A DNA stretch of 64,000 nucleotides, from assembly GCA_046761065.1 (NCBI GenBank), contig JBHIFL010000004.1:15687-79686 (forward strand). Reading direction: 5' to 3'. Below are positions 57,436 to 63,998 of the stretch, in pieces (the first letter of the stretch is position 1; each line of letters starts with the position of its first letter). The position numbers and the translations under genes are program-made. The notes below the pieces were generated by a model, which ran no database searches, was not told the DNA's origin, and was given only the letters and a program-made list of their open reading frames with translations. The stretch is from Candidatus Heimdallarchaeota archaeon (lineage in GTDB: Archaea; Asgardarchaeota; Wukongarchaeia; Wukongarchaeales; JBHIFL01).

Positions 57436-57845
57436 ACAGAATTGAACTAACGAAAAAGTGGGAATTGTGATTTAAACAATTCATTTTGCTGTGAATTTCT
57501 TTTTTTAATGTTAAAACAACTCTCAGAGAATACTAGGACTCCTATGATATCGTCTATATTTTTATAAATGTTTCATTATTGAAACATTTTTTGGAATTGG
57601 ATTTTTTTTATAATATATCTAAAAAAAACACATCTACTGCCTAAAAAAATCGGTTTTCCTACCTTTTTTCTGGTCTTAAATATTGATAATCAGCTATATT
57701 TTGTTTTTATTTCTAAATAAGACTTTTTGCAAAATTTCCAATTTAAACTGCTCTTATTAGTTCCCGTTTTTCTCCAACTCGCAACATTTGTATAGTGGGC
57801 TGTTGTATTCCATACTTGTTTAGAACATTTGTTGGAGTGATATAA

Positions 57846-59540
57846 GTGCCCCAATGGTACCCTCAAACTCCCGACAAAAACCCTTTCACTGAGGAACACG
57901 AACATCAATCCATCATTTGGGATGCCAGAACTGCATCGTACATCTGTACAACCTGTGGTCTTGTACTTACGCAATGGCCTCACCCAAATCCATCACCTGA
58001 ATCGTCTTTGATGGAAGTGAAGGGGCGTCCATCAACCGAATCTCGCAATGCATGGTTGGATCGCGAAATCGTTGAAGCCGGTTCAATTATTTTGGAACAG
58101 GATCTTATGAAACTCAACTCACAACAACGTGAACTCTTCCAGCGGCTTTACCGTGCACAGCTCCGGGTCATCAGTAGTTGGCGACAAGATCGGAGGAGGT
58201 CCGAGTTTGACCGTTTTCTCCAGCGTCTTACTAAATATAAAGCCTTTCGTATCGCCTTCCCCCCACATCATCCAAAGTTAGATAAACTCCTAGATACATT
58301 TCTCAAATGCTGTCAAAATTATGCCGTTCGCCATGGGCGCCACCACGGGCTCCAGAATTCTACTAAAATCCGGATTTTTCTTGCTCTCATTCAACCTCAT
58401 CTGAACTCGAAGATCTTCCAAGAAATTGTCACACGTGTAGCTGAAACCACAACACGGGAAGTTTACAAGGTCGCAAAAAAAATTGGATGTGATAGCAATT
58501 GTGCATCAGTTAACCTGCACAATCTACAACGTAAATCAGATTTTATTGACAATGCAATCCAACTAGTGAAAGATGCTCCGATCGATCCCGAAACAAAGAA
58601 GCGCGCAGAAGACATCCTTATAAAACGGGCGCGTGTCAATGGATTGATAACCCGTAAACGTCCCGCGACCTTAGCTGCGGCGGCATTATTTGTCGCAGCT
58701 TCGCACGGAACACCAGAACACCGCATTTCCAAGAACAAGGCCCAACAACTCGTTGGTGCGTCATATATCCCAACCCAAACGATCGATGACTGCAGAAAGA
58801 TCTTAGAGATGAAAGATGAAAGGTTTGAAAGAATGGAAAGCCAAAAATTGTTGATGACTTACTTTACCCAGCGAGAAGACCTCCTGGCAACACGCCGCTT
58901 GCTCCGGAGTCGATTGGTAAAAGAATCTAAAAAGGCCTTTCCCGAACTCGGTAAGATTTTGAAGCTCAGAAATGTGTCCACACTCAAATTTCTCAAACAG
59001 TACCCCTCCACCGTCGAGATAGCCAAATTAGAACGTGAGGAGTTAATCAACTTCCTAAAAACGCATTCACAAGGAAAACTTCGGAATGTGGACAAGCTCG
59101 CTAGTCGCCTTCTAATAGAGGCCCGTAAGAATGAAACTATAGGGAGACGTCGCCCCAGGCCTGGTAATCAAACCGTGATTCGTTCCTTAGTTTTTACACT
59201 TGAAAAGATTAAAAGGCATCGCCTTGAGCTCGAACGAAAAATGCGATTGGAGATTGGAGAAAAGGGGAGAGCTTTAATAAGAACCCCTGGCATCGGCTTA
59301 ATTACCGCAACCATCATGATCCTTTCAAAGAATCGTCCTATATCCAAACATGCGGTTGCCAATGGAAAATCATTTATCCACCACCGCTTATTGGATGCCA
59401 TTAGAGTCTTGCAAAGGAACAGACAACTTCGACACCAGTATTTAAAATTGTTCAATCAAAAGGTTCCAAGAGTGGCTACCGTTCCTTATGATATCGAACA
59501 ATTGCTTCAAATTACTCCTCCTTTACCTGAAGGTCTGTGA
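57846..59540 (+). CDS. TFB/TFIIB-like protein fused to an IS110-derived coiled-coil/Nop-like lobe
   Basis: IIWD...YICTTCGLVL Zn-ribbon; RKRPATLAAAALFVA cyclin repeat; from about 58850 R..L...R...L...AFPEL...LKQYP...IA.L...L..FL...S.G...TPGIGLITA...ISK...G...N.QLR..Y. Confidence 0.8.
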   Translation: MPQWYPQTPDKNPFTEEHEHQSIIWDARTASYICTTCGLVLTQWPHPNPSPESSLMEVKGRPSTESRNAWLDREIVEAGSIILEQDLMKLNSQQRELFQRLYRAQLRVISSWRQDRRRSEFDRFLQRLTKYKAFRIAFPPHHPKLDKLLDTFLKCCQNYAVRHGRHHGLQNSTKIRIFLALIQPHLNSKIFQEIVTRVAETTTREVYKVAKKIGCDSNCASVNLHNLQRKSDFIDNAIQLVKDAPIDPETKKRAEDILIKRARVNGLITRKRPATLAAAALFVAASHGTPEHRISKNKAQQLVGASYIPTQTIDDCRKILEMKDERFERMESQKLLMTYFTQREDLLATRRLLRSRLVKESKKAFPELGKILKLRNVSTLKFLKQYPSTVEIAKLEREELINFLKTHSQGKLRNVDKLASRLLIEARKNETIGRRRPRPGNQTVIRSLVFTLEKIKRHRLELERKMRLEIGEKGRALIRTPGIGLITATIMILSKNRPISKHAVANGKSFIHHRLLDAIRVLQRNRQLRHQYLKLFNQKVPRVATVPYDIEQLLQITPPLPEGL

Positions 59541-59947
59541 TAGTTACACCTGAAGGATATTGTCGCCTATCCATTAAAAATGAATCCGTACTTAACTTTG
59601 ATCACCGATGTAATGGCAACCACCTTCTTTACAGAAGCTGATTCTATTTCTCCACCCGATTCGATGATGAAACTCGAAGTGGCAAAAAAATAAATCATCA
59701 TGGGACTACTTCACATGCATTGGATCAAATCCATCTAAGAACAGATATCCTGAATATGATGGAAATGTTGAAAATAGTGGACAAAAAAGACTATCACGTC
59801 TTGATGACCATCTTCTAACTTATACTCCAATATTAGTCTAACAGATGGTTTCAAACAAATTTTATTTGTATTAAAAGAGACAGTCAATTGGTGTTTCGGA
59901 GTTATAATCATCTGCTAAGCTCAAAATGTAAGTCAATAACTTGCCTA

Positions 59948-60825: not shown

Positions 60826-61542
60826 ATGAATTCGCTTCAAAGAATACAAACTGCAGTTGTCATGGAGGAGGATTGGTTCTTGTATCACCTTCCAACGGAA
60901 GAACGAGGGCAGAAAGCCCCTAATTTGTCAAAGGCTATTCTAAAAAAACTTATCTCGGTTGAAGAGTTGTTAGAGACGATAAAGACGAAAATTGGTGAAC
61001 GTTTACAGAAGCGAATCCTAGCGAAGCTGCCAATTGCAGAAGCGGTCATTAGACAACAGTCAGGCACGAAACACCTGAGAGAGAGTACGAGAATGCGAAT
61101 TCTTTTAGCAATCTTGGGGACAGAAGTTTTGCCAGGGAGGTATTCGGAAATTCTTCAACAAACTCCTTATCAAGAAAATGAGATCTATAGCTATCGTAAA
61201 AGCCTCATCCTTCAGGGAGTGATACCAAACCGCTTTGTTAATAGGAAACGGGAATTTTTAGACCAAGCATTCCAGAAAATTGCAGAAGCTGACATCGATT
61301 TAGCTCTGAAAGGCACTGCGGTAAAAATCCTTACACGAATTACCCAACGTCCGTATGTTCCAAGTGTCAAATCCAGTAATGTTCTAGCTGCAATTGCATT
61401 AAAAGCCGCGGCTGAAATGACTAGATATGAGATCTCAACCATCAAGATTTGTAAGGCTGTTGGGAGCAGTTATATACCGCAAAACAAAGTAAAGGAATTC
61501 CTAAAAAGGATAAAGTGCCAGATCAGGAATAATCGTATTTAG
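60826..61542 (+). CDS. Divergent TFB cyclin-fold paralogue lacking the Zn ribbon
   Basis: Aligns by eye with the middle of 57846: STRMRILLA/STKIRIFLA, RKREFLDQA/RKSDFIDNA, VLAAIAL/TLAAAAL, VGSSYIP/VGASYIP. Confidence 0.75.
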   Translation: MNSLQRIQTAVVMEEDWFLYHLPTEERGQKAPNLSKAILKKLISVEELLETIKTKIGERLQKRILAKLPIAEAVIRQQSGTKHLRESTRMRILLAILGTEVLPGRYSEILQQTPYQENEIYSYRKSLILQGVIPNRFVNRKREFLDQAFQKIAEADIDLALKGTAVKILTRITQRPYVPSVKSSNVLAAIALKAAAEMTRYEISTIKICKAVGSSYIPQNKVKEFLKRIKCQIRNNRI

Positions 61543-61643: not shown

Positions 61644-63998
61644 TTATTGGTTCACAAATGGGCTATTCAACAATGTAAAGATTTTCCTGCTTTTTTCTTT
61701 GCCAATACCAGGAGTTGTTTGTAATTCCTCTTCACTCAGTGAAAAGACTTTGAGTGGAGTTCGATAACTTGCAAGAAGTCGTTTGGCGAGCAGGTCGCTC
61801 ACCCCTGGAAGGCTGGCAACCAAGTTTTCTTGTTGCTTGCTCAAGTCAATTGGTTCTTTCGTCATCTGTTGATGTTCCACAAGTACCCTGAGCAATCGCT
61901 TCGTTTCCTGAGGTGAAGCAGAAGGGACCAATGAGATCCCAAGATCCAATATAATTGACCAAAGAGTCTTGAGAATAGCCCTGGTATGGATTTTGACGTG
62001 TTTGAACACCTCATGGGAAAGGGTCCCCTCGAGGATTACAACGCTTTTATTATACTGTTTAGACGCATTAAGCAACTTAGGTAATAAAGTTCCTCCAGCA
62101 AGTTCTTTAACCAGCTCAGGAAATCCAAACCGAAAAATTGCGACGTCATCTATCACAAAACTAGGACCTCCCAACACTGTAATCTTGGGTGATTTCCTAC
62201 CATACCGGATTGCCGTAAAACTTGGGGCTTCGCGAGGGTCAATTTTTACTAATATACCAGCTTTCAAGGGTGTCCGATTGGCAGTGGCCATCGGCTTTTG
62301 ATCCTGCGGTAACTGCTGTTGTATCTCCTTCTGAGGTGATTGTTGAGAAAACTCTACTTCGGGACGGTTTTTCAAACGTTCAAACGCGTCCTGCATCTTT
62401 CGTTCCTTATCTTTAGAAATCCAATGAAATACTTCGTCTAAGGTATCTTTTGCGATTAAAAAGATGATTTTTCCGTGTTGTTTGCGTAAACGGCCCTTCC
62501 GCTGGACGTGACGAATTACTGAGGCTGTAGAATCATAAAAGATTACCAACTCGCAGCCAACATCCAGACCCTCTTCACCCACATTTGTACTCACTAAAAC
62601 CTGAAATTTCCCAGTCTGAAAGTCTTCAAGGACTTTCTTTCGTTTTGCTTCTGATAGATCTCTCTTACCAACTAAGACCTCTACACGAATCCCTTGTTCT
62701 TGGAGGATTTTTGCTAATTGAAAAACAGTAGTTTTGGATCTCGAAAAGATCATGACAGTTTTTGCCGGTTCAGCCTCTAATATTCGAAGAAGTTCTCGAA
62801 CTTTTGGATGTTCGTAGGGGACTGCTGTAGCAAGCTTGATAGCCGTTTGTAGCTGCGGACTATTCACTAACCGTTTATTCGCTTTCGTACTTTCTTTATA
62901 GAGCTTTTGAACAAATTCCAAAAATGCGGTCTTTCCTTGTCGTGAAAACAAATCAAGAGCGTGGTCCAGCTTGATTGCCGCGGCTAAGCGGGAACTCAAA
63001 TTCATGCGAATCTCCCGATTCCCCTCTGTGACAGGAAGCTTTTTCAAGCGATCTAAGGCGGTTAACAAAGTATTCCTGGAGGCGGTTTTGGGGATTTTAA
63101 TTCCTATGAGGTCGTTGTAACGGTTCACGCGATTTAACGCGGTTGCTCGCAGTGAGATTAACTCATCCCTCACTCGGTGCCACAGCTCGGGCAGAGGAAC
63201 AATGATCTGATCGATTTGCGCGTCAACTATGTAGGGTGTTATATCTTGATCTTTCTCTGTTTTGATCTCTATATGTTCAATGCCCAACGAGCTTATGATT
63301 TCAAATAGTTTGGCTTCGGGAATGGTAGCAGAAGCCGCAAGAATTCGAATTGAACCTCTTACATCTTTCACAAAATCCATGATTCGTTGGTATTTTTCCT
63401 GTGCGCCCCGATGCGCCTCATCGATAACCAATAGTCGACATTGCCTAAGATCCACATGGCCATCTCGGAGGTCATTCAATAAAGTTTCAGGGGTACTCAC
63501 AAAAATGTGGGCGCCCCCGTCCCACAGTTTTTTGCGACGTGATGGGTCGGTCTTGCCCGTCACAGAGAGGATTTGGGATGACTTGAAGGTTGTCTTTTCA
63601 CGGAAAAAGTTAAGATGTTGCTCAATAAGGGCCAAGGTCGGTGCTAATATAATTGTGAATCCGTCGGAAGAGTTTTGAAGGGCGTGAACCGTTGCGAGGA
63701 GAAATAAAATCGTCTTACCAGTTCCTATGGGAGCAACAACAAGGCTATTATACTTCACAATGTTACTAAGAATGAGGGCCTGATAGGTTCGACCTTCCAC
63801 TACCTTATCTTTTAGCAATGGATGTATAAGATATTCAGATTCTGGATGCTTTATCTGTTTGGCAGCCACTTCTCCCACTTTCAATGCTAGTTCACCTTTC
63901 TCTTTAAAATCTTCAAAGATTGAATAAGCCAGTCCGCTATTGATTGTAACATTACTTTGTATAGAAATGATAGATCTTACCATATGATTCAAGTTCAT
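61644..63998 (-). CDS. hef: Hef/FANCM-like helicase with degenerate ERCC4 domain and HhH2 (may extend beyond the window edge)
   Basis: HPLL, R.YQ, PIGTGKT, DEAH, SAT, HPK, GEEGLD, QRKGR; C-terminal IDPRE...VILEG, LPGVS, PGIGKEK. Confidence 0.9.
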   Translation of the reverse strand: MNLNHMVRSIISIQSNVTINSGLAYSIFEDFKEKGELALKVGEVAAKQIKHPESEYLIHPLLKDKVVEGRTYQALILSNIVKYNSLVVAPIGTGKTILFLLATVHALQNSSDGFTIILAPTLALIEQHLNFFREKTTFKSSQILSVTGKTDPSRRKKLWDGGAHIFVSTPETLLNDLRDGHVDLRQCRLLVIDEAHRGAQEKYQRIMDFVKDVRGSIRILAASATIPEAKLFEIISSLGIEHIEIKTEKDQDITPYIVDAQIDQIIVPLPELWHRVRDELISLRATALNRVNRYNDLIGIKIPKTASRNTLLTALDRLKKLPVTEGNREIRMNLSSRLAAAIKLDHALDLFSRQGKTAFLEFVQKLYKESTKANKRLVNSPQLQTAIKLATAVPYEHPKVRELLRILEAEPAKTVMIFSRSKTTVFQLAKILQEQGIRVEVLVGKRDLSEAKRKKVLEDFQTGKFQVLVSTNVGEEGLDVGCELVIFYDSTASVIRHVQRKGRLRKQHGKIIFLIAKDTLDEVFHWISKDKERKMQDAFERLKNRPEVEFSQQSPQKEIQQQLPQDQKPMATANRTPLKAGILVKIDPREAPSFTAIRYGRKSPKITVLGGPSFVIDDVAIFRFGFPELVKELAGGTLLPKLLNASKQYNKSVVILEGTLSHEVFKHVKIHTRAILKTLWSIILDLGISLVPSASPQETKRLLRVLVEHQQMTKEPIDLSKQQENLVASLPGVSDLLAKRLLASYRTPLKVFSLSEEELQTTPGIGKEKSRKIFTLLNSPFVNQ

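Follow-up and report, generated by a model that had tools for sequence, protein, structure and literature searches.

The window analyzed here is a stretch of 64,000 nucleotides (nt) from the genome of an Asgard archaeon deposited as Candidatus Heimdallarchaeota archaeon (contig JBHIFL010000004.1). Among its genes is P0001, in which a divergent paralogue of the archaeal transcription factor TFB is joined to a C-terminal module derived from a recombinase of the IS110 family. We confirmed that this fusion is real. An earlier note, made from the letters of the window, had described the gene as one uninterrupted open reading frame (ORF), and it is indeed a single frame of 564 amino acids (aa). The frame begins with a GTG codon, and a Shine-Dalgarno-like GGAG is conserved a few bases 5' of it. 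A phmmer search of the whole protein against the PDB found nothing, and the two halves are described separately below. The parts of the gene are as follows.

57846..59540, + strand: fusion gene P0001, an uninterrupted ORF of 564 aa encoding a divergent TFB paralogue plus an IS110-derived C-terminal module
57897..57968, + strand: Zn-ribbon-like element, residues 18-41 (HxH ... CxxC), placed by Pfam PF08271 and family conservation
58197..58814, + strand: two cyclin-fold repeats (TFB core), residues 118-323, placed by VIA-align, Foldseek, hhalign, and NCBIfam
58809..59537, + strand: IS110-derived half, residues 322-564, consisting of two long coiled-coil helices around a small helix-hairpin-helix (HhH)-like subdomain and then a truncated Tnp domain (profiles and ESM Atlas; helices from AF2)
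58938..59321, + strand: core that aligns pairwise with intact IS110 by BLASTP, residues 365-492 (FPELG ... FLKxHSxGxL ... PGIG helix)
59142..59168, + strand: near-invariant Arg-rich loop GRRRPRPGN, residues 433-441 (family alignment)
59286..59327, + strand: PGIG helix-hairpin-helix, residues 481-494, the start of the Tnp (PF02371) region (local core in hhalign)
59328..59369, + strand: short variable linker KNRPISKHAVANGK that stands where IS110 has the catalytic-serine segment RF...GLxP...SG, shorter by about 28 residues net (alignments)

The N-terminal half is a very divergent TFB

Residues 1-323 make up a very divergent TFB, with an HxH/CxxC ribbon followed by two cyclin folds. This bears out the earlier assignment of a TFB-type Zn ribbon and a cyclin repeat. 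The ribbon is atypical. The Pfam model Zn_Ribbon_TF (PF08271) matched residues 19-41 with an E value of 5.5e-4 (19.9 bits; cutoff, 29). The second knuckle of the ribbon is canonical (C34-x2-C37-G) and contains its sole CxxC, and the first knuckle reads H18-x-H20 in place of CxxC in all eight homologues that keep the N terminus. Like the HxH, the CTTCG of the ribbon is conserved in the fusion family, and the conserved residues include four possible Zn ligands at a putative metal site.

The cyclin-fold core resembled TFB in both structure and profile comparisons. VIA-align returned the core of Pyrococcus woesei TFB (1ais_B) as the best double-repeat match to residues 118-323 (Z 9.8; 162 residues aligned); single repeats also resembled cyclins, at a Z of about 9. 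A fold search of the two halves had been proposed in the earlier note; for the TFB half, the top 29 Foldseek matches in the PDB were all TFIIB, TFB, or Brf, with a probability of about 1.0 for TFIIB/TFB. Alignment of the N-half profile with the genome's own canonical TFBs in hhalign gave a probability of 94.5% over the second repeat, and the predicted local distance difference test (pLDDT) score of the AF2 model was 73 to 89 in the cyclin core. The two cyclin folds of a TFB/TFIIB core are present.

Scores against the sequence models were low. The Pfam TFIIB repeat (PF00382) matched residues 249-287 with 12.9 bits (cutoff, 23.6 bits), and the NCBIfam TFIIB model (NF001658) matched with an E value of 8.5e-8. 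The host genome also encodes five canonical TFBs, which score 307 to 461 bits, and one other divergent TFB-like ORF. These subcutoff scores, together with the presence of five canonical TFBs, indicate that the N-terminal half belongs to a highly derived TFB paralogue and not to a general factor.

The C-terminal half derives from an IS110 recombinase

Three parts of IS110 make up the C-terminal half: the coiled-coil region, into which an HhH-like subdomain is inserted; the PGIG helix-hairpin-helix; and the final helices of the Tnp domain. FPEL lies at residue 365, PGIG at residues 481-484 (nt 59286), and NRQLRHQY at residues 525-532; I483, G484, L485, T487, and A488 in the PGIG region are invariant across the family. 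The half is very basic, with an isoelectric point of 11.1 and 53 Lys and Arg residues versus 24 Asp and Glu residues. The coiled-coil (FPEL) and PGIG motifs picked out in the earlier note are found where it had placed them and are collinear with those of intact IS110 proteins. Of the ISK..G...N..LR..Y segment that it had also named, NRQLRHQY is likewise in place; the ISK triplet persists in none but the closest homologues.

The NCBIfam model transpos_IS110 matched all 11 family members at profile positions of about 117 to 239 of 343, with a best E value of 4.6e-10. Because this model also matches SMC coiled coils at E values of about 2e-4, the link to IS110 was tested independently. The profile of the C-terminal half aligned globally with an alignment of 18 intact Asgard IS110 proteins (E value of 6e-7; 210 collinear columns), and the local core of the same comparison, 51 columns covering the second coiled-coil helix and the PGIG helix, had a probability of 91% (86 to 91% across hhalign runs). 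Reversed, column-shuffled, and SMC coiled-coil controls all failed, with E values of at least 0.03. Both the coiled coil and the PGIG helix of an IS110 recombinase are thus found in the family in collinear order. Some ORFs of 830 to 850 aa in other Asgard genomes with partial matches to the NCBIfam model (G069:C81, which is L053:2096-4591 on the - strand, and G063:C116) encode SMC proteins; the 850-aa ORFs were rejected as IS110 relatives, being coiled-coil false positives with E values of about 2e-4.

A metagenome scan supplied an intact IS110 transposase of 380 aa (L056:358-1500, on contig Ga0163199_1061376), which matched PF01548 with an E value of 2e-23 and PF02371 with an E value of 3e-25. 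It is the closest full-length relative of the C-terminal half that was found, carries the motif FLKKHSRGQLG, represents the donor type, and is usable as an outgroup. BLASTP of fusion residues 365-492 against this protein gave an E value of 3e-9 with 26% identity over 129 aa, and hhalign of the family profile gave a probability of 97.2% and an E value of 3.7e-11 over 189 columns. The profile alignment includes the non-coiled segments FPELG, FLKxHSRGxL, and PGxG. Where the fusion has the Arg-rich loop GRRRPRPGN, the intact transposase reads GLENSG. In the ESM Atlas, all 30 of the nearest feature clusters carried Transposase_20, and the model of residues 322-549 superposed on RuvC-less IS110 clusters with a TM score of 0.75 over 212 residues.

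Other searches with this half gave little. No Pfam family was assigned to the C-terminal halves: PF02371 matched no family member at an E value of 10 or below, and there was no Nop match. Comparison of the C-half profile with the PDB yielded a chance match only, and a word-based search with the C-terminal half alone among 5.8 billion proteins found no IS110 close enough. With the AF2 model of this half, Foldseek and VIA-align returned local HhH-like matches, single long helices, and very weak Nop56/58 rows (E values of 4 to 5). The HhH-like resemblance is weak (residues 370-436 versus HhH folds of the EndoIII/MBD4 type; VIA-align Z 5.7 to 6.0), and a homodimer prediction returned no verdict (score, 0.00). 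The recombinase IS621 was absent from the Foldseek and VIA-align matches of this model; its nonrecovery is uninformative and is not evidence against IS110 ancestry.

If the resemblance to IS110 were convergent or compositional, the C-terminal half would be a coiled coil plus a generic HhH without transposon ancestry. The matching of SMC coiled coils by the NCBIfam model, the absence of PF02371 matches in the family, and the failure of the AF2 model to return IS621 all fit this explanation. Against it stand the 189 collinear columns shared with an intact IS110, non-coiled segments included, the BLASTP match, the failure of all controls, and the Transposase_20 assignment of every feature and structure match in the ESM Atlas. 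We regard convergence as hardly credible.

The catalytic parts of the recombinase have been lost. The IS110 match starts right after the DEDD domain, at position 117 of the 343-position profile, and no PF01548 match was found in the fusion; the TFB half fills the N terminus. The start of the match after the DEDD domain indicates that RuvC is absent, as the earlier note had said. That note had also proposed that the catalytic-serine loop was missing without a frameshift, and about 28 residues are in fact deleted after the PGIG helix with the frame intact. The fusion family has no conserved Ser. Lacking both RuvC and the catalytic-serine loop, the fusion protein is incapable of DNA recombination.

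Both halves are under purifying selection in a small clade

A search of 5.8 billion proteins yielded ten homologues with 46 to 79% identity, of which eight cover all or nearly all of the fusion and two are cut off by contig ends; one further fusion locus came from a metagenome scan. Two of the homologue records (one full-length, one a fragment) are labeled Candidatus Hodarchaeota by NCBI. A phmmer search of 1.8 billion cluster representatives returned family members only, and a scan of genome contigs found nothing. We found no split or stand-alone forms of the two halves, the only shorter form being a fragment at a contig end. Among 400 Asgard species genomes, the module occurs only in the window's own genome, and it is absent from the two other genomes of the same GTDB class. 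The fusion is kept by a small clade of Asgard (Hodarchaeota-like) archaea, and this narrow distribution (1 of 400 species genomes) limits what can be claimed about eukaryogenesis.

Both halves are under purifying selection. Pairwise ratios of nonsynonymous to synonymous substitution rates (dN/dS) were 0.17 to 0.33 for the N-terminal half and 0.21 to 0.27 for the C-terminal half; one near-identical pair with very few changes gave 0.59. Mean column identity was 71% in the C-terminal half and 64% overall. The dN/dS values refute a decaying IS110 half. A search for the fusion elsewhere and an estimate of dN/dS had been suggested in the earlier note, and they show a gene that is not unique to this contig (12 homologues, full-length or partial, retain the fusion), not decaying, and held in conserved chromosomal synteny. 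Its reading of the gene, a TFB-like factor carrying a domesticated IS110 module that is no longer catalytic, is supported by the homologues, the dN/dS values, and the synteny.

Flanking elements and neighboring genes

The features around the fusion gene are as follows.

57595..57609, + strand: invariant 15-mer AATTGGATTTTTTTT, in eight of nine homologous loci
57780..57797, + strand: BRE/TATA-like box CGCAAnnTTTGTATAGTG (BRE, B recognition element), about 60 nt 5' of the start codon, conserved in seven loci
59664..59818, + strand: small conserved ORF of about 52 to 63 aa with the C terminus KDYHVLxTLF*, directly 3' of the fusion (homologous loci)
60826..61542, + strand: TFB-core-only paralogue of 238 aa, syntenic partner of the fusion (BLASTP E value of 2e-6 to P0001 residues 162-318; profile A1, E value of 6e-18)
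61644..63998, - strand: Hef-like helicase (DEAD, Helicase_C, ERCC4, HHH_5), syntenic with the fusion in several loci

The BRE/TATA-like box is likely to be the promoter of the fusion gene. The 15-mer lies 173 to 193 nt upstream of this box in seven loci and is present in locus L055 too; one of the eight loci that have it reads G at the first base. No other exact copy lies outside coding sequence in the 4.4-Mb genome. Between loci with a synonymous divergence of 0.47 to 0.69, the upstream region shows 78% identity. A hairpin 5' of the 15-mer was considered as a terminator and discarded as inconsistent: it is strong in two to four loci and absent in three.

The core of the 15-mer, TTGGAT8, occurs at four intergenic sites in the genome: 57595-57609 (+) and 56397-56409 (+) in the window, and C6:7696 (-) and C15:46457 (-) elsewhere in the assembly (G000). 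All four lie 215 to 279 nt upstream of the start of a same-strand ORF, compared with 15% of background intergenic T8 runs. The four ORFs are the fusion itself, its HD-domain neighbor, and AlaX-like and CPBP-like genes. Since this distance window was picked after the data had been seen and there are only four sites, the TTGGAT8 target set is a hypothesis and not a result. The 15-mer and its core are a candidate cis-regulatory element and a candidate target site.

A block of about 200 nt conserved 3' of the fusion stop codon in five loci is a small protein-coding ORF. The ORF is present in five of eight loci (the window; L036:2925-3074; L039; L002; L001), one of which has otherwise different neighbors. 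Its variation is in excess at third codon positions, its indels are multiples of three, and it belongs to no Pfam family. Three loci have it in frame, and the other two require a -1 shift, at an A7 run in the window (59684-59690) and at an A9 run in L001; the shift could be programmed slippage, homopolymer assembly error, or decay. UGAUGA motifs downstream of the fusion were considered as part of a box C/D RNA and rejected, because they are the ATGATG start of this ORF and because neither L002 nor L001 conserves them.

Gene order is the same in five loci: the fusion (+), a membrane protein of 200 to 260 aa (-), the TFB-core-only paralogue (+), and often the Hef-like helicase (-). The neighbors differ in three other fusion loci. 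The TFB-core-only paralogue has neither the ribbon nor the IS110 part and shares with the fusion a G(A/S)SYIP motif that is unusual; no copy of either gene turned up outside the clade. The fusion thus occupies a stable chromosomal position beside this paralogue.

The helicase bears on whether the fusion protein acts in transcription at all. The cyclin half might have left initiation, with both halves serving as protein-protein or DNA-binding modules of a nucleic-acid-binding scaffold, for example, in DNA repair or chromatin. The extreme divergence of the TFB half, with scores below all curated cutoffs, an altered ribbon, and no recognizable B-reader, is consistent with such a role, as are the generic use of cyclin folds as interaction modules, the closeness of cyclins to TFB for a single repeat, and the syntenic Hef-like helicase two genes away. 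Other evidence points away from it. The best double-repeat and sequence matches are specifically to TFB/TFIIB, the conserved ribbon-like element with its four possible Zn ligands sits at the site of the RNA polymerase-docking ribbon of TFB, and the helicase is encoded on the other strand and is lacking in three loci. We consider a nontranscriptional scaffold unlikely.

Search for a guide RNA

IS110 recombinases are guided by a bridge RNA, and their non-RuvC part is related to the Nop domain; the earlier note was right on both points (PMC11208158, PMC11213020, PMC12045711). In IS621, the coiled coil mediates dimerization, the Tnp domain reads conserved bridge-RNA nucleotides and holds a DNA-opening wedge, and RuvC helps to read the core dinucleotide (PMC11208158). 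The earlier note had gone on to propose RNA-guided promoter selection. In such a mechanism, the IS110/Nop-like remnant would bind a guide or bridge-like RNA, supplied in trans or from the upstream spacer of about 185 nt, and base pairing of this RNA with DNA would bring the TFB half, and with it RNA polymerase, to the sites that the RNA specifies.

Several observations favor this idea. In the relatives of IS110, the counterpart of its non-RuvC part is a Nop-like region that binds RNA (PMC12045711, PMC11213020), and bacteria have RNA-guided transcription that relies on exapted transposon proteins (PMC13472631). The C-terminal half is very basic and under purifying selection, and the upstream spacer of fixed length (173 to 193 nt) that separates two invariant boxes roughly matches a bridge RNA in size.

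Direct searches did not support it. There were no tandem repeat arrays within 14 kb of the fusion, no box C/D or TIGR array near it, and no relevant Rfam match at the locus. Rfam also detected no bridge-RNA family at intact Asgard IS110 loci, which indicates that it is blind to this class of RNA. Folding of the spacer between the 15-mer and the TATA-like box gave a consensus energy of 0.0 for seven loci on both strands, and single-sequence z-scores of -1.1 to +1.9 revealed no excess folding energy; the spacer is not a bridge-RNA-like structured RNA. No supported RNA structure was found in the conserved downstream block, which is protein coding. With null folding of the flanks and fixed synteny, the locus has neither the adjacent structured bridge RNA nor the mobility of an IS110 element, and it offers no cis candidate for an adjacent guide-RNA gene of the kind found in dCas12f-sigmaE-type systems.

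The protein and the host genome gave similar indications. The Tnp domain, which reads RNA in IS621, has lost about 28 residues, and the residues aligned to the hydrophobic wedge of IS621 are not kept, being nonhydrophobic in the fusion (PMC11208158). The RuvC residues that help to read the core dinucleotide are gone. For an RNA supplied in trans by intact IS110 copies, as the earlier note had envisaged, the host genome holds one full-length IS110 gene (G000 C31:26271-27761, which is L004:1276-2766, P0015). Its product reads ...TTYQYGGK..., with Tyr in place of the catalytic Ser that is kept in 17 of 17 other aligned Asgard IS110s, and it may be an inactive or unusual recombinase. The loss of RuvC, the truncated Tnp domain, the altered wedge positions, and a single IS110 copy without the Ser lower the likelihood of RNA guidance without removing it. 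We judge an RNA-guided TFB to be improbable. The specific form in which the remnant binds a trans-encoded RNA, or a transcript of the spacer starting at the AATTGGAT8 box, and so places a TFB-type factor on DNA is a shade more improbable.

The IS110 content of the genomes also bears on a possible role in controlling transposons, in which the dead remnant would heterodimerize with an active IS110 through the coiled coil, or sequester bridge RNAs, and thereby reduce transposition. IS621 dimerizes through its coiled coil (PMC11208158). IS110 elements were found in 34 of the 151 Asgard genomes searched. Truncated transposase derivatives are well known as inhibitors in other transposon families, which lends this idea some support. 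However, even the closest intact IS110 found shares only about 26% identity with the C-terminal half, which has no close IS110 relative among 5.8 billion proteins, a distance that makes an interface shared with a resident element unlikely. The host has a single IS110 copy, and the conserved TFB half would be left unexplained. We consider a transposon-control factor very improbable.

A proposed lineage-specific TFB-like factor with an exapted extension

The explanation that best accommodates these results, and to which we give an even chance of being correct, is that the fusion protein is a lineage-specific, specialized TFB-like transcription factor whose C-terminal extension was exapted from an IS110 recombinase. 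The IS110 remnant would serve as a module for oligomerization and nucleic-acid contact, because the coiled coil of IS621 is a dimer interface and because the remnant is very basic (isoelectric point of 11) and carries the GRRRPRPGN loop and an HhH. Extra protein-based DNA contacts made by the remnant could give the TFB paralogue a small target set of its own. This set might include the fusion's own upstream region, marked by AATTGGATTTTTTTT, and general initiation would be left to the five canonical TFBs. None of the evidence found requires a guide RNA.

Several points weigh against this explanation. The TFB-model scores are far under the curated cutoffs (31.6 versus 384 bits for NCBIfam TFIIB). 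No B-reader or B-linker was recognized between the ribbon and the core, where hhalign gave no aligned columns; this region has a pLDDT below 60, yet it is conserved within the fusion family. The helix aligned with the BRE-recognition helix is acidic (TIDDCRKIL), whereas this helix is basic in TFB (judged by eye). Binding of RNA polymerase, TBP, BRE, or DNA by the fusion protein is predicted only, and the link of the 15-mer to the fusion protein is purely inferential. AF2 confidence was low (pLDDT of 64 for the whole protein and 61 for the C-terminal half), so that structural inferences about the C-terminal half rest mainly on sequence profiles and ESM Atlas models. By analogy, an RNA ligand is possible, as the non-RuvC region of IS110 is the RNA-binding region of its relatives.

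Comparison with known systems

Paralogues of TFB correspond in archaea to alternative sigma factors; in eukaryotes, the RNA polymerase I and III systems are each defined by TFIIB-like factors that carry extra C-terminal domains. Like TFB/TFIIB, the fusion has an N-terminal ribbon-like element followed by two cyclin folds, with sequence similarity in the second repeat. Unlike TFB/TFIIB, it scores far below the family cutoffs and has an HxH first knuckle, no recognizable B-reader or B-linker, and an altered putative BRE helix. Brf1 and Rrn7/TAF1B carry long C-terminal extensions, and in this general respect the fusion resembles them. Its extension, however, is transposase derived and unrelated to theirs, and its distribution is one small clade. 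A conserved Asgard TFB paralogue has gained an extension by capturing the noncatalytic scaffold of an RNA-guided recombinase.

With IS110 proteins (IS621, PDB 8WT6, and the intact transposase from the metagenome), the fusion shares a collinear coiled coil with an inserted helical subdomain, the PGIG helix-hairpin-helix, and the terminal Tnp helices. It differs in lacking the DEDD RuvC domain, the Ser loop, an adjacent structured noncoding RNA, and mobility, and it has gained the Arg-rich GRRRPRPGN loop. It is a variant within known kinds, namely, TFB paralogues and domesticated transposases, and shows cleanly how a transposase has been domesticated into the basal transcription machinery; an intact donor-type relative is available for comparison.

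The Nop-domain proteins Nop5, Prp31, and the TIGR-Tas proteins TasA and TasR are distant relatives of the non-RuvC region of IS110 (PMC11213020, PMC12045711). As among these relatives, in which RuvC-less or RuvC-dead derivatives have been exapted repeatedly, a RuvC-less module has been put to new use in the fusion. TasA-type proteins are reported as RNA-guided repressors (bioRxiv 10.64898/2026.09.09.750476). Unlike Nop5, Prp31, and Tas proteins, the fusion has no Pfam Nop match and no nearby box C/D or TIGR array, and its module is of the IS110 type by sequence.

The literature describes the kinship of IS110 and Nop, RuvC-less IS110-like proteins in passing, TIGR-Tas, and transcription by dCas12f-sigmaE (PMC11213020, PMC12045711, PMC13472631). 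No published description of a TFB-IS110 fusion was found in the literature searched. The dCas12f-sigmaE systems are bacterial and consist of separate proteins with the guide RNA beside the gene, whereas here a single archaeal polypeptide is fused and no guide RNA was found. The two are alike in concept, each coupling a dead, transposon-derived nucleic-acid-targeting protein to an initiation factor (PMC13472631). With the fusion, one can ask in a concrete case whether IS110/Nop-type modules lend themselves to reuse in targeting transcription. If the protein binds no RNA, the IS110 scaffold would be reusable purely as a dimerizing, DNA-binding extension. If it does bind RNA, it would be a parallel to bacterial dCas12f-sigmaE and of very high interest, and placement by that RNA would make this one fused polypeptide the first archaeal case of promoters being selected under RNA guidance.

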